Positions 2,555 to 17,137 of a DNA stretch of 17,137 nt are shown here, in pieces. The stretch covers positions 1-17,137 of the forward strand of contig CAZYIM010000029.1 of the NCBI GenBank assembly GCA_964647565.1, written 5' to 3'. Under the pieces are notes generated by a model. It saw only the letters and a list, made by a program, of their open reading frames with translations, did not search any database and was not told the origin of the DNA. How positions within the stretch are numbered: position 1 is the stretch's first letter; every line of letters begins with the position of its first letter. A program made the position numbers and the translations under genes. The stretch is from an uncultured Methanosarcinales archaeon (lineage in GTDB: Archaea > Nanobdellota > Nanobdellia > Woesearchaeales > CAZYIM01).

Positions 2555-2637
2555 AATGTTATTGAATTCAAATAGTTTTCATTTAGAAGTAGTAAAAAAA
2601 CAAAAGATTTAAAAAAGGTGTGTGTTTTGGGATCGTT

Positions 2638-3702
2638 ATGATTGATGTTACTGCATATAATGAACTGGATCAACAGATACTAGAGAACGCGAAAGTAATC
2701 AAACCGCTCTACTACTGTAATCCAACCAATCTTAAGGAACAAAAAACAGAATTTTTAGCTAATAAGATAAGAAATCCTTCATTCATTTACAAAGAGCTAG
2801 AATATGATCCAAAACAAGTTGAAGCTTCTATCAATTCCATAGAAATTCCAGATAATATTATCGGAAATATCTACCAGGATAAGAAAAATGATGAATTATC
2901 ACAGAATAAGCTAATTCTTAATAGAGGAAATAAAGATGTTGTAATGGAATCTACCATCGCAATGCACGGCATCCCCAGTTCATTGTTAGTTGAATACGCC
3001 GAGAAACTATTAAGAAAAATACCGAACATAGAGGCACCAAAAACAGTACCTGCAAAAGACATCAGGGATTCTATTAAAGAAGCATTCGAGCAATACGGCC
3101 TTGTTGACTGGACAGTCGAGTTCTCTGATAAACGGTTGACAACCATATACAATGCTGAAAAAAAAGTCACTGTCTGCAAAACAAGGTTGTTTACGGAAAT
3201 CGATCCGTCTCGACTCAAGATCCACGAGATAGGGGTCCACGCCCTCAGAGCTGCCAACGGGTATCAACAGCCTCTGAATATCTTTGCATTGGGCATACCC
3301 GGATATTTACCTACAGAAGAAGGCATGACTACCTATTTTGAGGAAGCAACAGGTAACACAAGTGAAGAAATGCTCAGAGATTATGCGGCAAGAGTGATCG
3401 CAGTCGACTCAGTATGTCAAGATCTGGATTTTCGACAGACATTCGACAGATTAAAGGATTTCGACGCAACAGATGACCAGGCATGGAATCTCTCTGTAAG
3501 AGCTCACAGAGGTGGCGGCTATATCAAGGATCATGTTTATCTTAAAGGTTATCTAAAAATCAAAGAGTTTGCAGAACAAGATGGTGATTTTAAGACTCTC
3601 TATGTCGGAAAGATTGGGATTGAAGATCTGCCCTTGGCAAAACAGTTATTGAGTGAAGGCGTTCTTAAAGAACCCAAATATCTTCCAGATTTCCTAAACT
3701 AG
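2638..3702 (+). CDS. DUF1704 family metallopeptidase (QEGLA-motif / MATCAP-like carboxypeptidase)
   Basis: HEIGVH..R..NG (HExxxH), PTEEGM, and C-terminal VRAHRGGGYIKDHVYLKG...LYVGKI match DUF1704. Promoter AAAGATTTAAAAA at 2603-2615. Confidence 0.85.
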   Translation: MIDVTAYNELDQQILENAKVIKPLYYCNPTNLKEQKTEFLANKIRNPSFIYKELEYDPKQVEASINSIEIPDNIIGNIYQDKKNDELSQNKLILNRGNKDVVMESTIAMHGIPSSLLVEYAEKLLRKIPNIEAPKTVPAKDIRDSIKEAFEQYGLVDWTVEFSDKRLTTIYNAEKKVTVCKTRLFTEIDPSRLKIHEIGVHALRAANGYQQPLNIFALGIPGYLPTEEGMTTYFEEATGNTSEEMLRDYAARVIAVDSVCQDLDFRQTFDRLKDFDATDDQAWNLSVRAHRGGGYIKDHVYLKGYLKIKEFAEQDGDFKTLYVGKIGIEDLPLAKQLLSEGVLKEPKYLPDFLN

Positions 3703-3982: not shown

Positions 3983-4783
3983 TCAGAAGTCGCCAAGATG
4001 TTTTTGGTTCTTCTCATCCTCAAGCTGCTTCTTCATGTGCTCGAAAATAGGTGTCATTATGTAGCCTTTCTGCATGTCGCCAAGCACTGCATATGCTTCT
4101 GGATGCGCCCAACAATAATAGGCAATATAGGCGCAGAGAACTGAATCCAGAACATCTTCAAAATCCTTTAAGGCCTTAGCTCTAAGTTTTCGCACGTTCT
4201 TCCTTGTTATCTCTTTTGGCAATATTAAAGCAGGATCAGCCTTCTCCAGAGTCTTTAGGTGTTTCTGATACTTCTCAAATTCCTTCCAGCGAAACTCATA
4301 ATCCCGTTTTGGCTTGGCTTTGTATCTCAATATCCTGTCAAGCTTGAACAAAACAACAATAGATGGATGCGGAAATACTTCAAAAAACTTCCTCTTTTTT
4401 TCAAATTTATCAATGTAAGGGCTGTGCTCAAACCCTTCATCCGTCAACCGCTTGCTGATTTCCTCTCCTCTAATGGTCCCTGTCCACTGGCTCAACCGCT
4501 TTCGATTCGATGGATGGGCGCCAGCATCATACTTCCTGAACAACATGCCAGTCAAGGCCTCAGCATCCCTTCGACCTTCCTCATTCGGAACAATGAGAGG
4601 TGCGTCAATGGCAACAAAGGCATTCTGCTTCTTGACGTGCTGATTGACCAGCTTTATTATGTCGTCATCTGAAAATGCAACTGCAGAAAAAACAAGTTCA
4701 GCCTTCTTCTGGTCTCCCTTAAGCACAGCAACCCCGCTGCCGTTCCTAGTAGACCATGCCAAATCAACACCAACGAAAAACAT
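3983..4783 (-). CDS. DUF429 domain protein (predicted RNase H-fold nuclease)
   Basis: FVGVDLAWS, VAIDAPL, FEVFPHP and EDVLDSVLCAY motifs. Confidence 0.88.
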   Translation of the reverse strand: MFFVGVDLAWSTRNGSGVAVLKGDQKKAELVFSAVAFSDDDIIKLVNQHVKKQNAFVAIDAPLIVPNEEGRRDAEALTGMLFRKYDAGAHPSNRKRLSQWTGTIRGEEISKRLTDEGFEHSPYIDKFEKKRKFFEVFPHPSIVVLFKLDRILRYKAKPKRDYEFRWKEFEKYQKHLKTLEKADPALILPKEITRKNVRKLRAKALKDFEDVLDSVLCAYIAYYCWAHPEAYAVLGDMQKGYIMTPIFEHMKKQLEDEKNQKHLGDF

Positions 4784-4824
4784 AGACACGTTAAAAGCAC
4801 ACTAGTTTATTAAGTTTATTAAAA

Positions 4825-4966
4825 TAAAAAAATAACAATAATGCTTAAAAATTGCTTTGCAATTTTTGGCATCAACGCTTTCAGCTTATGATAACGACAC
4901 AGACGGCCATGCTTAACATGTCCTATTCGGCTAGCGCCTCATCTGGCCATTATTGTTCTTTTTTTA
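4825..4966 (-). repeat. Fold-back structured element E1 (18/19-bp terminal inverted repeats; three-way-junction core 4896-4948; extra hairpin 4841-4872)
   Basis: TAAAAAAAtAACAATAATG (4825-4843) is complementary to CATTATTGTTcTTTTTTTA (4948-4966). The core has the same architecture as E2. Confidence 0.75.
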
Positions 4967-4972
4967 GAAAAC

Positions 4973-7231
4973 TTATTTCTTCTTGGCTTTCTTGGGCTTT
5001 TTGGCTTTCTTAGGTTTATCACTTTTTTTGCCATTCCCATTACCTTCAATCTTTTCAGTATGCCGACATTTAGGATAACCAGAACAGCCATAGAACTTGC
5101 CGTAAACAGACGTCCTTAGCACCAACATCTTGCCGCATTTCGGACATACTTTTTCAACCTTGCCATTCTCAACTGCCTCTGCCTCTTTCTCAGCTGCAGT
5201 ATCACCAAGGTTTTTGCCCGGACATTTAGGATTGATACATACCCATTGTGGTTTTTTACCCGCGCGTATTATTGAGATGATCGGATGATTGCAATGTTCA
5301 CATATCTTGTCTGTGGCTTTCACAAATCCAGCCGCAGGTAGCTTGAAGGTTGTCTTGCATTCAGGATATTTATCGCATGCTATGAACCTTCCAAACTTTC
5401 CCTTTCGGACCATAAGAGTGCCTCCACAGCCCGGACAGGTACCAATAGTATTAGTCTTATTCTGAGTCTCATCATGGGCTTCAACTAATTCCTTGCCTAA
5501 CTCTTTTTCATGGTCTTTAAGGTGTTTTAGGATAGCTGTAAGCATGTCCTTGGCTTCTTCCACAATAACTTCTTCCTTTGTAGTCTGTTGCCTTATCGCT
5601 TCCATCTCTTCTTCAAAGTGTCGGGTCAGTTCTTCATCCACCATCTTCGGACAGAACTTCTCCATCACCTCAGTTATCATTATACCAAGATCAGTAGCTT
5701 CCATAGCCACACCCTGGACATATCCTCTTCTATGAAGTGTGTCGATGACCGCAGCCCTTGTTGACTTAGTACCTAAGTTTCTTTTTTCAAGTTCTTTGAT
5801 TATAGAAGCAGGCGTGTATCTTTTTGGAGGTTGGGTCTCTTTATCATGCTTGATAATATCATCAACCTTGACATCATCTCCTTGTTTAGCATCAGGCATG
5901 ACTTGCTCCTCGAACTGGACATGAGGGCCATAGAATTCCTGCCACCCTTCTTTGACAGTCCGAGTTCCCTTGGCAATAAAGTTCTCTGAACTCACATCAA
6001 TTGTGATCTTTATGGTTTGTCTGATCGATGGTTCTGCAAAGACAGCCATGAATCTCCTGACAATCATATCATAGAGCTTGGCCTTTTCTCCTGTTATGGC
6101 CTTAGGCTGGATGCCAGTAGGATAAATTGCAGGATGTGCAGGATCGGACTTGGTTCCCTGTCGTGGATTGAGTGGTTTGGACAAAAGCTTGCCTGCCAAT
6201 GCTTTGTAAGTTGATTGCTTCGAGATAGATGTAAGTATTTTCTTATAGCCAATAGTTGGAGGCAGTTTCTGAGAACTGGTTCTTGGATATGAGATGTAAC
6301 CAGCAATATATAACTCCTGAGCTATCTCCAGGCTCCTCTTAGGTGCTAATCGGAGATTTCTAAAAGCTTCTGTCTGAAGCTTGGTTAAATCCAAGGGAAC
6401 AGGAGGCAGCTTTTCAAATTCATTCTTGTCGACTGAAGCGACCTTACCGTCTTTACCCTTAACTTTTTCAAGAACCCCAATACAATTCGCTTCTACATCA
6501 AACTTGTCCTTCTGATGCCATGCCTCAATACTGGTTTTGTTGAGCTTACCAAGAAGCTGCAGTTGCCAATAGGGCACTGGCTTGAAGGCCTTGATATCTT
6601 TTTCCTTGTCAACAATCAGTTTCAATGCAGGTGCTTGTACTCTTCCTGAAGATAGTGTTATGTACCTATTCTGGCTCTTTACAGAAAGTGTTAATGCCCT
6701 ACTAAGATTGATACCATAAAGCCAGTCTAATATATGCCTGGTCTCTCCTGCCAATGCCTGGCCCCAATTAATAGTTGGATGGGCATGTTCAAACGCATGC
6801 ACTACATCCGGTTTGGTCAAGGTGGAGAACTTCATTCTCTTGGCGTCCTTCTGCTTACATGTAAAACGCACACAGTTGAGGCCTATGACTTCGCCTTCCC
6901 TGTCATAATCGCATGCAACAATAAAATCTTTCGCACCTTTTGCCAGTTTTTTTATTGCGTTTAAGTATTTTTTTGAATAGGATGATTTCTTGTCAACATC
7001 AGACGTTGGCACCCAATGGACATCAAAGGAAGGGTACTTAAAAGAGCGCTCTTTCTCTGCAACTGTATATAGATGGCCTACTGCCGGCACAACAACTATA
7101 TCTGTATTGCCATGAGACAGATCATAATAAGGCACTCCAAGATAGTTCTTTTTTACTGGTTTACCGTCGGCAAGTGCAACTGCGATCTTATTGGCTGCAG
7201 ACGGTTTTTCTGTTATGATAAGTGTATACAT
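4973..7231 (-). CDS. topA: DNA topoisomerase IA (archaeal TopA) with C-terminal zinc ribbons and Lys-rich tail
   Basis: TOPRIM motifs IITEKPS and ACDYDREGE, SSGRVQ, catalytic GYISYPRT, HPAIYPT, LGTKSTR, and three C4 zinc-ribbon repeats. Confidence 0.97.
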   Translation of the reverse strand: MYTLIITEKPSAANKIAVALADGKPVKKNYLGVPYYDLSHGNTDIVVVPAVGHLYTVAEKERSFKYPSFDVHWVPTSDVDKKSSYSKKYLNAIKKLAKGAKDFIVACDYDREGEVIGLNCVRFTCKQKDAKRMKFSTLTKPDVVHAFEHAHPTINWGQALAGETRHILDWLYGINLSRALTLSVKSQNRYITLSSGRVQAPALKLIVDKEKDIKAFKPVPYWQLQLLGKLNKTSIEAWHQKDKFDVEANCIGVLEKVKGKDGKVASVDKNEFEKLPPVPLDLTKLQTEAFRNLRLAPKRSLEIAQELYIAGYISYPRTSSQKLPPTIGYKKILTSISKQSTYKALAGKLLSKPLNPRQGTKSDPAHPAIYPTGIQPKAITGEKAKLYDMIVRRFMAVFAEPSIRQTIKITIDVSSENFIAKGTRTVKEGWQEFYGPHVQFEEQVMPDAKQGDDVKVDDIIKHDKETQPPKRYTPASIIKELEKRNLGTKSTRAAVIDTLHRRGYVQGVAMEATDLGIMITEVMEKFCPKMVDEELTRHFEEEMEAIRQQTTKEEVIVEEAKDMLTAILKHLKDHEKELGKELVEAHDETQNKTNTIGTCPGCGGTLMVRKGKFGRFIACDKYPECKTTFKLPAAGFVKATDKICEHCNHPIISIIRAGKKPQWVCINPKCPGKNLGDTAAEKEAEAVENGKVEKVCPKCGKMLVLRTSVYGKFYGCSGYPKCRHTEKIEGNGNGKKSDKPKKAKKPKKAKKK

Positions 7232-7292
7232 TACCTCTGAGAAAAAAAGGTTCTTTTAAAAACCTTTGCGTTGGAAGTCTGAAAATATGTCG

Positions 7293-7317
7293 AGAAAAGA
7301 AAAATAAAAGAAAAAGA
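7293..7317 (-). terminator. Oligo-pyrimidine (U-rich) archaeal terminator of the paralogue pair
   Basis: Minus strand reads TCTTTTTCTTTTATTTTTCTTTTCT just after the stop at 7323. Confidence 0.5.
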
Positions 7318-7322
7318 TTATT

Positions 7323-9146
7323 TTATTTAGTATCCTTATTGTATCTTTTCCTGAAGTCATCCACGAATCTCTCGAATTTGAACTTCTTTGGATCTCGAAT
7401 GGTTTTTTCCCAATAGTTTTGCTGGATATCGGTTGTCTCTCTGAAATGTTGCAGGTCGCTGGGGGACATTTCATGGGCAACAAAGACAGGTACTAGGAAA
7501 GAAGGATACTGGTGATCTGTATCTTCACCAACCAAGCCTGCATCGAAATACTGCCTTGCATGAATAAGTGATGTGTCTGAGTTGATTAGCATGCTCAATT
7601 CATCCACTTCTAATTTCGGGAATTTGTCGAATTCCATTGTAGTTGCAACCCTGTTGAGATACGCGAGATTGGTTATTTTGCCTGACAACTCTTTGATCTC
7701 CTCAAGATCATATCCTATCTCCATAAGACCATCTAACAAATCAATCTGATGGTATCTTGTTTCATTTTCAGTCTTGAACAAGGAGTCATAGGTTTCATAA
7801 TCAAATTTGCCCATCAGCTCCTTTGCCAGTTCAATTATCTTTTCAGGCTTTGGACCATCGACATTCTGGGGAAGCAGATAGTTTCGAGCCTCCTTGATAA
7901 AGCCCCTGTCAACATCAAGATTTTCTTTTAGCATGAAGTAGAAATCTACATCAAAGTAGCTCATGTCCTTAAACTTCTCTTTCCACTCACTCTTCTTGGC
8001 AGCATAATCTTGCTTAAGGCCTTCGTAGTTCACAATGCTTGCTCCTACATCGACTGTCTCTTTCTTATCGTCCTCATAGACAATAAGTTTGTTTGTTTTG
8101 AAAATTTCCTTGTTCTCAGTATCAATCCGTTTTGCTAAATCCACAATATTTTCAATCTCTTTAACGCCCAGCCATTCTTTTACAAATTCCATAGACTTAG
8201 CAGAAGGCCTATCCTCCAGTGCCATCAGCCACTCATACTTATCAACAGGACAGAGGCTAAAGTATTGGCCGACAGAATCATTCTCACTTAGTTCCAGCAG
8301 CTTCTTGCCAAGCGTCGGATCACCCTGGATGAATTTCTTGGCTTGACTAGAGTCTGAGTACATGGTTATCTTATCTATATCGTCACTGTTCAGCTCTTTG
8401 GATGTGATTGCTTTCATAGATGTCAGTCCAAGTGAAACATATCCACTGTCACTTACATGATCCTGTCCAAATCTAAGGGCAGTCTTCCAGTCATCAAAAC
8501 CACTATGCAGTCTACGCCTTGAATCTTCGCCTAAATCAGTTCCTAAAACCTTAAAAACAGTCTCAACATAATTTCGGATAGTTGTTCCTACAAGCACTTT
8601 AGGATAATGGTCGACACCTCCAAAAGTGCCCTTGTCCCATTCGCCTGTTTTCTTCTGGACTCCATACATGTTCAGGATAATTGAAGTTATTGAAGTAAAT
8701 TGAGAATAAACATCATCCCTATACAATAATCCCCAATCCTGATCTCTAAGCACATCATACATCTCTTCAAAATCATCAAGAGACAAGGGGAACCTCAGCC
8801 AATTTTCAGAAATCGTTTTAAGCCAACCATCAGATTGGATGTTGAGGTGATAAGCTTTAATAGCCATATCCAAACGATTCCTACCCTTAGCAGGAGTATT
8901 TGGAAAATTAAGGTTCTCTAAAAGCTTGTCGGCCTCTATCAAATCCTCCATACGATGAAAATTGTATACTTCAATAGCTTTTTTTGGGCCTGCAATCTCT
9001 TCAATGGTACGAAGATAGGCTTTCATCTCCCTCTTGGTCTGTTGCACTGCTTCTTTAACAGGATCCTTTTCAGGCTCTGGCTTTGGTGTTCTAACTTCCT
9101 TTTTTTTAGGAAGTTTTTCCTTGATTAGTTTTTCTAGATAACTCAT
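7323..9146 (-). CDS. Hypothetical protein (607 aa), paralogue of 9158-11056
   Basis: Long ORF with a GGGGGGA SD-like site. Collinear motifs shared with the upstream ORF. Confidence 0.85.
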   Translation of the reverse strand: MSYLEKLIKEKLPKKKEVRTPKPEPEKDPVKEAVQQTKREMKAYLRTIEEIAGPKKAIEVYNFHRMEDLIEADKLLENLNFPNTPAKGRNRLDMAIKAYHLNIQSDGWLKTISENWLRFPLSLDDFEEMYDVLRDQDWGLLYRDDVYSQFTSITSIILNMYGVQKKTGEWDKGTFGGVDHYPKVLVGTTIRNYVETVFKVLGTDLGEDSRRRLHSGFDDWKTALRFGQDHVSDSGYVSLGLTSMKAITSKELNSDDIDKITMYSDSSQAKKFIQGDPTLGKKLLELSENDSVGQYFSLCPVDKYEWLMALEDRPSAKSMEFVKEWLGVKEIENIVDLAKRIDTENKEIFKTNKLIVYEDDKKETVDVGASIVNYEGLKQDYAAKKSEWKEKFKDMSYFDVDFYFMLKENLDVDRGFIKEARNYLLPQNVDGPKPEKIIELAKELMGKFDYETYDSLFKTENETRYHQIDLLDGLMEIGYDLEEIKELSGKITNLAYLNRVATTMEFDKFPKLEVDELSMLINSDTSLIHARQYFDAGLVGEDTDHQYPSFLVPVFVAHEMSPSDLQHFRETTDIQQNYWEKTIRDPKKFKFERFVDDFRKRYNKDTK

Positions 9147-9157
9147 AATATCCCCCC

Positions 9158-11056
9158 TTAGAATCTATTTTCTTGTTTTTCTTTTGGTTGATCTTGATTC
9201 ATGAATGTTCTATAATCCCGTATCAACATGGGCACATCAATCCTTCCAGTCAGATTGCCATCAGTATCTTTGGTATATTTGTCAAAGCCCACCACGTCCT
9301 TGAACTTCTTTAGACTGGACGCTCTTATTTGGTGTTGTTTGTAAAAGACATTCAACAGCTCAACTGGAAGTCCATCATCGCCACCAACAATGCCCCTCTC
9401 AAAATAGCTCAGTATCGCAGCTTTTTCAATGTTCACCCCATGACCCCCCCGAGTCAAGTTCGAGAGTACTTTAAGCTGATCTAGTGGCATTTTTTTGTTT
9501 TCATCCTTGATAAGCTCTTTCAATCTGTATAGGCTTGCCCCACCTTCTGAAAGCTGCACTATCTCTGCTTTGGAATATTCCTGTTTCATCAGAAAGCATA
9601 TATCTTCAGCTTTTGATGCTGAACTCGGGAAGAGTTTTTTATATTCTTCAAGATCAAACACTTTCTGCAATTGTTTGACGCGAGCTATAGCTTTTGAGGG
9701 ATTAAAGACAAGCCTGTCACCCATGATAAACAGCAGATAATTCATGTCCATATCAGTATTATCGTCAAGCTGCTTCTGGAAATTGAGAGTGTAACCCGAA
9801 CCATCTGATCCGCTGGTCTGCATCCATGCTTTCTTTCCTTCCAAATATCTATCACGATTTGTAACAAACTCATCTGCATCCTTAGCATCCATCTTAGTAA
9901 AAAGATATGCAGCATCTTCTTCTGAGAATTCGCCATCGATCTTCTGGGCCTGCTCCACGAGTGCGTCAAAGGTCTGAGGTTTAAAATAATCATTCACATA
10001 CTGAACAGCCATGCCTGAAGGCGTGTTCTCAAGAGCTACCATCGCATCAAAAGCATCTAAATCCTCCTTTAGGACATTGAAATAGATTTTAGCATCCTTC
10101 ATCTGAGCTTTGTTCAACAACTCCTGGAACTTCTCTATATCCCCTTGCACATAATCACGACTAAATCCTTTTCCAAACTGCCTATAGACCTGCTGGATAG
10201 CACCAATCTTAATGTTCTTGACATGTTCTATCTTGTTAAGGCCCATATTAACGTGTGGCACTTCAGACCAACCTAGCTGTTGTGGTTTCTTAACCTTAGC
10301 ATATTCAAGTGCAGTGCTCCAAGAATCAAAACCTTCATTGATATTAAAATCACTTCTATACTTACGGGTACTATCGATTAATGATCGAAGGATCAACTTA
10401 GCCAATGCATCCATTGGAACTGCAGGAAGTACCTTGAATTTATCTTGATAAAACCTTCCACTAACAGGGAGAATAGGACCGTCTGATGTATGTATCAGAT
10501 ATTCTTCCAATCCGTCCTTATCAGCATCAGTACCATATTTTATTAATAGTTCTTTTGTTGTCACAATGACAAAATTAGGTGCATTACTCAAACCCACATC
10601 TTTAAGTTCCTGTTTCATATGAAGTGATACATCATGGATTGTGTAAATATCATCTACAGACAGAGGTATTAGATAATTTTTGGATGATTTATCCTTAATT
10701 TCTTTTAATAATCCTCCTGTAAGACCATCAACCATGTATGCTTCATTTATCAGATCAAGTCTTGCACCCCTTGTTTTAGGAACATATGGAAAATCAAGCC
10801 CATCCAAGAGATTATCCATCTCAATAAGTTGTTTAGGTTTCCAGGCCCTAAAGAATTTCAAGGCCCTTTTAGCACCCCCAATCTTCTCAAGGGCATTAAG
10901 ATAGCCCCGCATCTCACATTCTTTTATCTTCTCAGCAGGCATATCTTCAAGAGTCTTGAACTTCTGCTGAAAGTCCCTTTTCAATAGCTCTGTCTGGAGA
11001 GCTTTGTCTTTTAATTCAGAAATATGTTCTTCTATCTTGTCCTCAATATATCCCAT
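9158..11056 (-). CDS. Hypothetical protein (632 aa), paralogue of 7323-9146
   Basis: Long ORF. GAGGTGG SD (11063-11069) lies 6 nt before ATG 11056; TTTTTATA box near 11101-11108. Confidence 0.85.
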   Translation of the reverse strand: MGYIEDKIEEHISELKDKALQTELLKRDFQQKFKTLEDMPAEKIKECEMRGYLNALEKIGGAKRALKFFRAWKPKQLIEMDNLLDGLDFPYVPKTRGARLDLINEAYMVDGLTGGLLKEIKDKSSKNYLIPLSVDDIYTIHDVSLHMKQELKDVGLSNAPNFVIVTTKELLIKYGTDADKDGLEEYLIHTSDGPILPVSGRFYQDKFKVLPAVPMDALAKLILRSLIDSTRKYRSDFNINEGFDSWSTALEYAKVKKPQQLGWSEVPHVNMGLNKIEHVKNIKIGAIQQVYRQFGKGFSRDYVQGDIEKFQELLNKAQMKDAKIYFNVLKEDLDAFDAMVALENTPSGMAVQYVNDYFKPQTFDALVEQAQKIDGEFSEEDAAYLFTKMDAKDADEFVTNRDRYLEGKKAWMQTSGSDGSGYTLNFQKQLDDNTDMDMNYLLFIMGDRLVFNPSKAIARVKQLQKVFDLEEYKKLFPSSASKAEDICFLMKQEYSKAEIVQLSEGGASLYRLKELIKDENKKMPLDQLKVLSNLTRGGHGVNIEKAAILSYFERGIVGGDDGLPVELLNVFYKQHQIRASSLKKFKDVVGFDKYTKDTDGNLTGRIDVPMLIRDYRTFMNQDQPKEKQENRF

Positions 11057-11126
11057 CCACAACCACCTCGAAATACTTTACCAAAAGAAAAAGAATATAG
11101 TATAAAAACCTGTTGTTTATTTATAA

Positions 11127-11217
11127 ATAAAAAATAGCAACATTGGCCGGGCGAGCCGTAGGTGAGTAGGGCTTTCTACGAAAGCCCGTCCGTGCCCTTG
11201 TTGTTGCTATTTTTTAT
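11127..11217 (+). repeat. Fold-back structured element E2 (perfect 16-bp terminal inverted repeats; three-way-junction core 11145-11196)
   Basis: ATAAAAAATAGCAACA (11127-11142) pairs with TGTTGCTATTTTTTAT (11202-11217). GC-rich core GGC-CGGGC-GA-GCC-GTA-GGT-GAGTA-GGGCTTTC-TAC-GAAAGCCC-GTCCG-T-GCC. Confidence 0.8.
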
Positions 11218-11241
11218 ATTGGACGCTTCAATTATTTTTAT

Positions 11242-11883
11242 CTATTTATCTATCTCAACTCTCCCTGTTCTCTCACTCGCATCCAGGGTTATCGCTTGCC
11301 CATGCTTGATCAACTTGGTGGCATTGCCTGTTCCAACAATACAAGGGATATATTTCTCCCTGGCTACATTGGCTGCATGGCATGTGAAGCCGCCATGGTC
11401 TGTTACAAAGCCAACTATCTTGTCCATATAGTTTGCAATGTCTGGCTTGGCATACTCTGTAACCAGGATGCTCCATGGCTCGACATCCTTTAAGGGATGT
11501 TTTGGACTGACAACATAGGCCTTGCCAGAGACTGTTCCGTGGCAACCAGTTATGCCAACAACTTCATCTTTTTTAGCAGCTTCTCGTTTCCGCCAGTCTG
11601 CATCCTCCCAATTCCTGAGACCTAACTCCAGAGCAGATCCAAACTCCACTTTACGCAAATACATCAGACCCATAAGCATTACCAGAGTCTGGCCGTAAGC
11701 TAATTTCTCGTCCTCAACAGAGCCATGCGGTCTTGCCCCAGGATTCAGTTCAGGATCGTGGGTTATGTACTTGCCCAGGTCTCCAAACTCTGTACTTGCG
11801 ATGACATACCGAAATTCTGCATCCTTTCGGTCTTCCTTTTTCATTAGAGTCTGCACTCTAACTAAAATCTTTTCTAGTTCCAT
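11242..11883 (-). CDS. Fusion of a MazG-like all-alpha domain and a PEP-utilising enzyme mobile (phosphohistidine) domain
   Basis: C-terminal GTVSGKA...ILVT...FVTDHGGFTCHAANVARE..IPCIVGTGNAT...GQAITLDA..GRV is the PEP-utiliser mobile domain. N-terminal TEFGDLGK...AYGQTLVMLMGLM....EFGSAL resembles the MazG fold. Perfect GGAGGTGA SD at 11889-11896. Confidence 0.8.
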   Translation of the reverse strand: MELEKILVRVQTLMKKEDRKDAEFRYVIASTEFGDLGKYITHDPELNPGARPHGSVEDEKLAYGQTLVMLMGLMYLRKVEFGSALELGLRNWEDADWRKREAAKKDEVVGITGCHGTVSGKAYVVSPKHPLKDVEPWSILVTEYAKPDIANYMDKIVGFVTDHGGFTCHAANVAREKYIPCIVGTGNATKLIKHGQAITLDASERTGRVEIDK

Positions 11884-16167: not shown

Positions 16168-17137
16168 ATGATTGAGACAATATTAAGGGAAATTGGGCTG
16201 ACCGAATCCGAGATAAAAGTCTATTTAGCTCTTCTGGAGCTCGGCTCAACAACAACAGGACCCATCGTCGACAAATCAGGCGTCAGTTCCTCGAAAATCT
16301 ATGAAATCCTTGAAAAATTAGCCAAAAAAGGCCTGGTCAGCCATATCATTAAGGCAGGAACAAAACATTTTGAAGCCAGCGATCCAGAGAGAATCATGGA
16401 CTATCTTGAAGAGAAAAAAAACTCTCTTACAGACCAGATTCGCTCTGTAAAAACTATCCTGCCACAGCTAGAGATCAAACGACAGCTTACAGAACATATC
16501 TCAGAAGCCACCATATTCAAGGGTTTTAGAGGTATCCAGACAGCGTTTAAAGAGTTACTAAAGGATGCAACACCCGAATTTACTATGCTTGTAATGGGAT
16601 TCTCAAAGAGCATACCAACCATTGAAAACTGGATGCATAGCTTTCACAGACAACGAGCAGAGAATAAAATACCTGCTAGGCTCATTATGCCAGAAACAAG
16701 GCCAGATCTGGGAAAAACCCGGAGTGCTATACCACTAACAAAGATAAAATATCTGCCCCAAGACATGTTCATACCTTCTGTGATCAATATCTACAAGGAT
16801 AAGGTGCTGATAGTTATCGACGAGGAATTCACATCAATCATGATAAAGAATAAGGAAGTGGCAGATTCATTCACCGCACAATTCGAGAACCTCTGGAAAC
16901 AGGACACAACCATCATCCAAGGATTCAAAGCACTGGATACATACTTAAGATCATTTATTGACGATCTAAAGGAAAATAATGAACCATACCTGACCATAGG
17001 TGCCGCATTTGGTGTAAAAAAATTCGAGAAAAAATACGTTGAATTCTTCAGGAAAATCGGCCAATATAGAGTAGATCAAAAATTAGATGTTAAGATGTTG
17101 TTTCAACAAGGAACAGAAGAGTTTGTCAAAAATAACA
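16168..17137 (+). CDS. TrmB family transcriptional regulator with duplicated effector domain (3'-truncated by window edge); not in the ORF track
   Basis: Manual translation MIETILREIGLTESEIKVYLALLELGSTTTGPIVDKSGVSSSKIYEILEKLAKKGLVS is a classic TrmB HTH. Frame is open to the window end. Confidence 0.9.
   Translation, partial: MIETILREIGLTESEIKVYLALLELGSTTTGPIVDKSGVSSSKIYEILEKLAKKGLVSHIIKAGTKHFEASDPERIMDYLEEKKNSLTDQIRSVKTILPQLEIKRQLTEHISEATIFKGFRGIQTAFKELLKDATPEFTMLVMGFSKSIPTIENWMHSFHRQRAENKIPARLIMPETRPDLGKTRSAIPLTKIKYLPQDMFIPSVINIYKDKVLIVIDEEFTSIMIKNKEVADSFTAQFENLWKQDTTIIQGFKALDTYLRSFIDDLKENNEPYLTIGAAFGVKKFEKKYVEFFRKIGQYRVDQKLDVKMLFQQGTEEFVKNN

Follow-up and report, generated by a model that had tools for sequence, protein, structure and literature searches.

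Several described systems resemble the element family reported here in part. Repetitive extragenic palindromic (REP) units, the bacterial interspersed mosaic elements (BIMEs) that they form and BOX repeats have much in common with this family: they are short, GC-rich, structured palindromes, a genome carries tens of them, all of them lie in intergenic space, frequently between co-directional genes, and either orientation occurs; variants are modular, and copy numbers are very different between relatives. In REP/REPIN units, a conserved GTAG stands beside the foot of the hairpin. MITEs (miniature inverted-repeat transposable elements, e.g., Correia elements) share with it terminal inverted repeats, a length of about 85-300 bp, the lack of coding capacity, proliferation within lineages, and presence or absence at a given site. 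Hammerhead ribozymes (RF00008, RF00163, RF02276) are likewise three-way junctions, in which the second helix is lengthened by tandem G.A pairs plus one more pair; their unpaired invariant core reads CUGANGA...GAA, and an A15.1-U16.1 pair lies beside the cleavage site. Integron attC sites also fold into hairpins: one strand carries extrahelical bases, the tip is branched and variable, AAC/GTT stands close to the ends, and the sites are located after open reading frames (ORFs). The stretch studied here (the window) comprises 17,137 nucleotides of contig CAZYIM010000029.1 (GenBank assembly GCA_964647565.1), from an archaeon deposited as an uncultured Methanosarcinales and placed by GTDB in the Woesearchaeales. 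It carries two fold-back elements, E1 and E2, which are two copies of an uncatalogued structured intergenic repeat family found in some Woesearchaeales (DPANN) archaea.

The window is the first 17 kb of a 39-kb contig, and the source genome (G000) presents 2.68 Mb, 38% GC and 87% completeness. Archaeal genes, among them those for prefoldin and TrmB, are encoded in it, and the DPANN-type archaeal source proposed in the preliminary description of this DNA, made from the letters alone, was borne out. The E1 and E2 core sequences read exactly as stated there, and the related outer inverted repeats are real: the arms of E1 are 19 nt long, 95% complementary and separated by 104 nt, while E2 forms one long hairpin. 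The E1 fold presents -40.4 kcal/mol and z = -2.9, with 1 of 200 shuffles equally stable; the core stands at its top and a 52-nt insert alongside. The E2 fold (Table 1) was equalled by 0 of 200 shuffles. A degenerate pattern for the shared core yielded two matches in the window, E1 and E2 only, against a mean of 0.00 in 200 dinucleotide-preserving shuffles, none of which gave a match. The placement of the elements was also described correctly: E1 begins 6 nt past the stop codon of a type IA topoisomerase gene (4973-7231, minus strand) and is sense to its neighbours, and E2 lies 27 nt past the stop codon of the gene at 11242-11883 (minus strand; a small protein with a PEP-utiliser domain) and is antisense to both neighbours.

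A covariance model, R1, was built from the E1 and E2 cores alone with the structure given in the preliminary description. The family predicted there exists: with this two-core model, over 150 additional copies were detected in related metagenome-assembled genomes (MAGs) labelled Woesearchaeota or Nanoarchaeota. In the source genome, R1 yielded 16 matches at E <= 1, 13 of them at E <= 4e-7, and a regular-expression scan for the 3' half of the core, with the 5' half checked by eye, gave about 27 copies, a count that takes in variants with a 40-160-nt insert in helix P2, poorly scored by R1. Five other archaeal MAGs presented 52, 25, 10, 4 and 2 matches. When 1.12 Mb of one of these five, G042, was searched alone with laxer filters, 67 copies were found (about one per 17 kb), 31 on the plus strand and 36 on the minus strand.

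A pattern scan of one genome per prokaryotic species (185,579 genomes) returned at least 80 loci. Among the 80 loci listed, 79 are in MAGs that are DPANN by label or placement: 49 in one Woesearchaeota MAG (G041), 20 in a second, five in three further MAGs labelled Woesearchaeota or Nanoarchaeota, and five in three labelled Methanosarcinales, one of which has match coordinates equal to those in a genome placed in the window's own order. The remaining locus, in an Actinomycetes MAG, is a chance match, without the helices and unmatched by the covariance model. No pattern match was found in 2.9 million viral contigs (IMG/VR). The distribution is patchy, with matches in 4/41, 4/151 and 4/151 sampled genomes of the order or phylum, source genome included, and most genomes involved are incomplete MAGs. 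The carriers are small archaea of anoxic marine waters. The source genome is itself larger than all 40 listed relatives of its order (0.6-2.1 Mb).

No real match to Rfam 15 was obtained with cmscan at the cores (the window at E <= 10, 18 loci at E <= 1, 6 loci at E <= 10, and 13 loci at E <= 1), which agrees with the earlier statement that the element is not a named family. Chance matches far below threshold were mir-1538 along the E2 arms (25.4 bits against a 78-bit cut-off) and CrcZ across E1 (15.1 against 95). Among other RNAs considered, no tRNA or tmRNA is present in the window, and the RNase P and SRP RNAs of the source genome are located elsewhere (C4:43480 and C4:72228). The motif is not described in the accessible parts of the literature on Woesearchaeota and DPANN repeats and RNAs, where the automatic MITE calls of one survey (PMC11602168) may include copies.

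The consensus core is a three-way junction. Its first helix, P1, has the sequence GGCCRG../..CYG-U-GCC, in which one U is bulged; the P2 hairpin can be short or long, and the P3 hairpin is variable. About 30 core letters, including the bulged U, are nearly invariant, and the primary sequence of P1 and of the junction is strongly conserved across genomes of different families. Two subtypes are distinguished, a majority 'GC..G' form, to which E2 belongs, and a minority 'AU..A' form, to which E1 belongs. In alignment A4, which was derived from the model and has 90 distinct rows taken from three sets of genomes, standard pairs fill 97.7-97.8% of the cells, against 84-85% when shuffled; changes on both sides are seen in 16 of 18 pairs; and the covariation score is 0.43-0.45, against 0.19 in the shuffles and at most 0.10 when partners are slid by one to three columns. 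The observed value was reached by 0 of 500 shuffles on any measure, although these statistics overstate significance and independence, since repeat copies are kin by descent. A second alignment, A3, gives the same picture; both were aligned by fitting to the model, and the rows of A3 had in addition been chosen with a pattern that fixes many core letters. All three helices covary. Support for P1 is good: the pair R5-Y48 appears as A-U 65, G-C 14, U-A 4 and C-G 2 times, and C4-G49 as C-G 75 and U-A 6 times (A4), while P2 and P3 vary freely with compensatory changes. Selection on structure, as inferred from E1 and E2 in the preliminary description, thus holds for the family, with compensatory changes in each helix.

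The junction letters GA and GARTA and the bulged T are retained, as had been claimed, but some of the junction letters do pair: covariation links core position 8 (C/U) to the third letter of GARUA, with C-G 57, U-A 27, U.G 4 and other combinations 2 times in 90 distinct sequences. Because of this covariation, P2 probably continues through two tandem G.A pairs and another two pairs. The alternative would be a junction with two competing pairing registers. Between position 8 and G45 the changes are one-sided (C-G 58, U.G 30), and R7 pairs equally well with U24 or U46. At its shortest, P2 itself is a 3-bp hairpin; at its longest, it is an insert of about 160 nt. At three source-genome loci (C2:59.8k, C2:77.8k and C11:15.0k) it is replaced by a 100-160-nt structured insert, conserved among the three and without an Rfam match.

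The two layers of the element behave differently with respect to strand. When each core was folded on both strands, G.U pairs made up 329 of 3229 pairs on the sense strand and 50 of 2825 on the antisense strand, and the sense fold was the more stable in 151 of 155 copies. The arms, which are 15-20 bp A/T-rich inverted repeats in nearly all copies, with an A-run in the 5' arm and a T-run in the 3' arm, presented 157 of 2477 and 135 of 2461 G.U pairs, respectively. Given the G.U bias and the sense stability of the core on the one hand and the strand-neutral arms on the other, the core is selected as one particular single strand, and the arms are ordinary inverted repeats.

All copies are intergenic. 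Among the 92 loci with both neighbours called, 29 copies have both genes in their own orientation, 30 have both in the opposite one, 20 lie between convergent genes and 13 between divergent genes; in the source genome, about 8-9 of the 27 copies lie between divergent genes. Although the ORF calls are crude, orientation relative to neighbouring genes is random, and the preliminary description was right to call the element orientation-independent. The neighbours scanned are housekeeping genes: among the 81 of 177 listed neighbouring ORFs that were scanned, there was no transposase, no integrase and no enriched gene family. Several copies are found inside operon-like co-directional pairs, such as pdxT/pdxS, pgk/gap and trxB/trx.

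These positions could be those of cis-acting bidirectional terminators, insulators or stabilisers of mRNA 3' ends, a REP-like role in which the hairpin and the T-run do the work and the core is a GC clamp. The arms agree with this proposal, since they are strand-neutral and either strand presents a hairpin followed by a T-run, which is the terminator layout in both directions; many copies lie between co-directional, functionally linked genes, and E1 and E2 each follow a stop codon. A GC clamp, however, needs neither some 30 near-invariant letters nor a bulged U, a covarying junction pair or a bias towards one strand. Moreover, the 13 copies between divergent genes have nothing there to terminate, and archaeal termination is not known to need more than oligo-T. 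Hence, this role fits the arms and not the core, and we consider it quite unlikely as an account of the family.

The closest known RNA architecture is the hammerhead, of which the family is not a member; both statements follow from a partial likeness in letters combined with failed models, changed positions and paired core letters. About 30% of the G042 copies, together with E1, read C-A/U-G-A-U-G-A, P2, G-A-A, with GUC after P3. A new or degenerate self-cleaving ribozyme akin to the hammerhead could account for this: by comparison with the hammerhead consensus, the minority subtype holds 10 to 11 of the 11 core letters (CNGAUGA...GAA), some copies read exactly CUGAUGA, P2 carries the tandem G.A pairs, a covarying pair occupies the position of U7/A14, and GUC follows P3. 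Nevertheless, the hammerhead models matched no element, even at E <= 10, and Hammerhead_II and Hammerhead_3 yielded 0 matches at E <= 1 anywhere in five carrier genomes. The majority subtype alters three invariant positions, as the equivalents of A6, U7 and A14 read G, C and G in about two thirds of the labelled A4 rows (53 of the 91 tallied). The equivalents of C3 and U4 (core pairs C4-G49 and R5-Y48) are Watson-Crick paired into P1 and covary, and all copies have UA before P3 and GU after it in place of the A15.1-U16.1 pair. From these comparisons, a ribozyme of this kind appears highly improbable.

The preliminary description had listed several mechanisms (a REP- or MITE-like unit, an attC-like site, a protein-binding RNA motif, or a bidirectional terminator or processing signal), and this list was narrowed rather than settled: attC sites and RAYT-mobilised REP units fail the tests described below, a classical MITE is left without target-site duplication or transposase, and a terminator is supported by the arms and contradicted by the core. 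If the copies were attC-like folded single-stranded DNA sites for a tyrosine recombinase, several of their features would be expected: each is an imperfect hairpin, only one strand has extra bases (the bulged T and the longer 3' arm), the branched tip varies, and the arms contain CAAC/GTTG. One arm subfamily, ATCCAAC...GTTGGAT, fits the R-box consensus, and some copies directly follow stop codons. Clusters of attC sites lacking integron-integrases (CALIN) are reported from Nanoarchaeota in a survey that excluded singleton attC sites (PMC9668308). The copies studied here, in contrast, are dispersed singly and in both orientations, with no same-orientation arrays. No integron integrase (TIGR02249) exceeded the 265-bit cut-off in any of five genomes, where the best match, of 130 bits, is split in the manner of Xer recombinases. 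Finally, attC sites have conserved ends and a free centre, which is the reverse of what is observed, and recombination of this kind is therefore hardly probable at all.

Classical MITEs, mobilised in double-stranded form by a DDE transposase whose gene lies elsewhere and with an incidental fold, would explain the terminal inverted repeats, the length of 85-300 bp, the many copies, the patchiness and the presence or absence between genomes. An automated survey gives 105 MITEs per Mb in 'a Woesearchaea genome', among the highest archaeal densities (PMC11602168), which is in line with this explanation. However, target-site duplications were not above control. For 148 copies, whose ends were set roughly by minimum-free-energy folding, the best direct repeat at the ends compares with that of mismatched flanks as 0.41 vs 0.46 at length 0, 0.30 vs 0.32 at length 3, 0.17 vs 0.14 at length 4, 0.07 vs 0.06 at length 5, and 0.04 vs 0.03 at length 6 or more. 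In the source genome, the arm motif occurs at elements only and not at the ends of a longer transposon, no autonomous transposon with matching ends was found, and the 81 scanned neighbours include no transposase. The interior is also more conserved than the ends, covaries and is biased to one strand, none of which is required by transposition of double-stranded DNA. Taken together, these results make a classical MITE very unlikely.

No cognate HUH/RAYT or integron integrase partner, of the kind that the preliminary description had proposed to look for, was found. Of six carrier genomes tested for the Y1 domain (HUH/RAYT, PF01797), the source genome, G042 and G020 presented no match over the cut-off, the weak sub-cut-off match of the source genome being a membrane-like hydrophobic ORF of 200 aa, while G041, G044 and G045 presented one or two genes each. 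In G041, the one Y1 gene is bounded by IS200-type hairpin ends, which bear no relation to the core, and its own insertion site is an element arm. This IS200-type element (Y1 transposase of 164 aa, E 1e-29) stands in the T-rich arm at two G041 contig ends (L167 1477-1971, minus strand, and the end of L104), and its insertion probably caused the assembly breaks there. With respect to the GTAG of REP/REPIN units, G-A-R-U-A-G precedes P3 in all copies, and the same letters take part in junction pairing. The family further differs from REP/BIME and BOX in that it is archaeal, has no known sequence similarity to them, and presents a three-way junction with about 30 nearly invariant letters instead of a simple imperfect palindrome.

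Turnover of the copies was followed by BLAST of the 49 G041 loci against the 1.12 Mb of G042, with collinear cases picked by eye from the resulting table; orthologous flanks are about 77% identical. Ten orthologous sites are filled in both genomes, seven in the same orientation and three in the opposite one. Six sites are filled in G041 and empty in G042; given that divergence blurs the edges of these indels, which show no clean duplication, they could also be deletions. Other copies are strongly constrained. Two orthologous core pairs are identical at 53/53 and 56/57 positions, loops included, and the 60-nt window holding the core is the best conserved of its locus (0.97, against 0.42-0.60 in adjacent intergenic windows). 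In a further orthologous pair, P3 is kept and C4-G49 is changed to U-A.

The main rival to the reading that we favour is that the copies are paralogous small-RNA genes of the host, each its own transcription unit producing a stable three-way-junction RNA with a conserved protein partner, the T-run of the 3' arm serving as the archaeal terminator. The strand-specific core, the conservation of P1 and the junction across genomes of different families, the near-identity of orthologous cores between flanks of about 77% identity, and an orientation independent of the neighbouring genes are all consistent with it, as are TATA-like A/T-rich stretches that E2 and two conserved orthologous pairs carry 22-33 nt upstream of the first core G. 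Yet TATA-like strings are everywhere in these AT-rich spacers, and base composition outside the arms is mirror-symmetric upstream and downstream, with no sense-only promoter signal. A housekeeping RNA would not usually be matched in only 4/151 sampled genomes or vary in copy number from 2 to more than 60, some orthologous sites show loss or inversion of a copy, and no RNA run is among those listed for the organism. We therefore regard small-RNA genes as unlikely.

Our tentative preference, held at slightly less than an even chance, is a non-autonomous, REP/BOX-like repeat. Its strand-specific core would function as a single strand that folds and is recognised in trans, and its copies would be gained, lost and inverted. 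Each copy consists of an outer layer, a 15-20-bp A/T-rich palindromic stem equally good on both strands, and an inner layer, a GC-rich core of about 52 nt that folds well on one strand only, into the three-way junction. The core would work as a folded single strand, for which RNA appears likelier than single-stranded DNA, and a putative trans-acting protein would recognise it. As a non-autonomous repeat, the element would come and go, flip between its arms and acquire small inserted modules, as bacterial REP/BIME or BOX repeats do; inversion between the arms and exchange between copies may have led to the flipped sites and to sites with changed subtype. The data establish the family, its covarying fold, the asymmetry between strands, the patchiness, the turnover and inversion at orthologous sites and the constraint on some orthologous copies, whereas the RNA nature, the protein partner, the mode of spread and any advantage for the host are inferred. 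A more specific proposal, which we hold as possible though on balance doubtful, is a new DPANN-specific structured RNA class: a three-way junction with half a hammerhead core and an R7-Y8 strand that pairs with G/A23-U24 or G45-U46, acting with a putative protein either as a self-propagating element mediated by RNA or single-stranded DNA or as a multi-copy regulatory RNA.

A number of results weigh against the non-autonomous repeat that we prefer. Some orthologous copies are nearly identical across species, which would be more expected of a host function than of a selfish repeat. Insertion polymorphism (the six sites filled only in G041) and terminal inverted repeats are present, whereas target-site duplication above control is not, and TnpB/IS605 yielded 0 matches in the source genome, which at 87% completeness also lacks a Y1 gene over the cut-off. 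No transposase is among the 81 neighbouring ORFs, a result that does not extend to a full transposase inventory of the genomes. Contigs of four DNA metagenome runs covering 4300-11700 are identical and bridge E1 and E2, and none skips either element; since they bridge both, they carry no information on mobility or function. As to the single strand, about half of the copies in tandem context are antisense to their neighbours, which raises the question by what route the sense strand would be transcribed. Because the flanks are symmetric in composition, no sense-strand-specific promoter signal is seen. The eight runs listed for the organism include no RNA run and have no bearing on function. The kinship of the copies and the fitting of both alignments to the model, noted above, count on the same side.

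In DPANN archaea, genomes are small, experimental genetics is almost absent and very few non-coding elements are known. Here, one conserved fold is present at dozens of intergenic sites, with a density in two genomes of about one per 17-30 kb, and between species some copies are nearly unchanged. If the family is RNA, it would be among the largest uncatalogued structured RNA families in archaea and a candidate Rfam entry. As a mobile element, it would move without the usual marks and so point to an undescribed mechanism; and if it is a new RNA class acting with a putative protein, it would be an archaeal genetic element without a described counterpart. In any case, the covariance model can be used to mark these lineages, and assembly breaks in Woesearchaeal MAGs, like their 'MITE-dense' calls, are accounted for by it.

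The coordinates of E1, E2 and their parts, together with those of associated modules in other loci, are presented in Table 1.

Table 1. Coordinates of E1 and E2 in the window and of associated modules in carrier genomes.
Feature	Position	Strand	Basis or remark
E1, whole element (outer stem, core and extra insert)	4825..4966	-	inverted repeat I15; minus-strand fold encloses 4966 to 4825
E1 5' arm, A-rich	4948..4966	-	read in sequence, inverted repeat, fold
E1 core, 53 nt, minority 'AU..A' subtype	4896..4948	-	top match of model R1, 75.2 bits, E 8e-18
E1 core, P1 5' strand	4948-4941	-	
E1 core, GA	4940-4939	-	
E1 core, P2 hairpin	4938-4929	-	
E1 core, GAATA	4928-4924	-	
E1 core, P3 hairpin	4923-4905	-	
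E1 core, P1 3' strand with bulged T	4904-4896	-	
E1 extra insert between core and 3' arm	4844..4895	-	small A/T hairpin inside; outside family core
E1 3' arm, T-rich	4825..4843	-	read in sequence, inverted repeat, fold
E2, whole element, single long hairpin	11127..11217	+	fold -43 kcal/mol, z = -5.7
E2 5' arm, A-rich	11127..11144	+	sequence, fold
E2 core, 52 nt, majority 'GC..G' subtype	11145..11196	+	model R1, 73.4 bits, E 2.7e-17
E2 core, P1 5' strand	11145-11152	+	
E2 core, GA	11153-11154	+	
E2 core, P2	11155-11163	+	
E2 core, GAGTA	11164-11168	+	
E2 core, P3	11169-11187	+	
E2 core, P1 3' strand with bulged T	11188-11196	+	
E2 3' arm, T-rich	11197..11217	+	few letters longer than 5' arm directly after core, likewise in nearly all copies
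47-nt module sites (G000)	C2:59.9k, C2:77.9k, C3:100.7k, C8:61.7k, C11:14.9k, C28:28.9k		
Loci of two short modules (G042)	L060, L050, L063, L084, L096, L093, L083, L085 and others		
Loci of two short modules (G041)	L091, L100, L079, L167		
Copies preceded by truncated copy (G041)	L057, L053, L054, L047, L071, L089, L056		
Copy preceded by truncated copy (G000)	C3:4.7k		

The copies are modular beyond the size of P2. The extra insert of E1, of about 52 bases, has one partial relative in the source genome (C51, 88% over 34 nt). A 47-nt module, composed of a conserved leader and a 22-nt hairpin with a CATGG direct repeat on both sides, is found by exact match in the arm of five copies, and by eye in six, including C28, where it occupies the other arm and is inverted. 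The module resembles a further, very small insertion element with the arm sequence as its target. Two more short conserved modules with a small GC hairpin stand near many elements, at a distance of 30-45 nt, on one side or the other and in both orientations; a comparison of orthologous loci shows them as indels, and they have no Rfam match. Many copies are also preceded by a truncated 5' arm and the first few core letters of another copy, and look nested or recombined.

Between E1 and E2, which face in opposite directions, lie the topoisomerase gene and two adjacent minus-strand ORFs of 607 and 634 aa (7323-9146 and 9158-11062) without a Pfam match. Given the stretches of DNA similarity that they have in common (repeat families D2 and D7), the two ORFs are probably paralogues. 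Elsewhere in the window, the plus-strand ORF at 2620-3702 is an archaeal match to the MATCAP family (PF08014, microtubule-associated tyrosine carboxypeptidase; E 2.8e-55). Another plus-strand ORF, at 16168-17136, combines a TrmB DNA-binding domain with a weak SIR2_2 match (E 4.7e-5, slightly below the cut-off), an architecture like that of a defence or regulator fusion.

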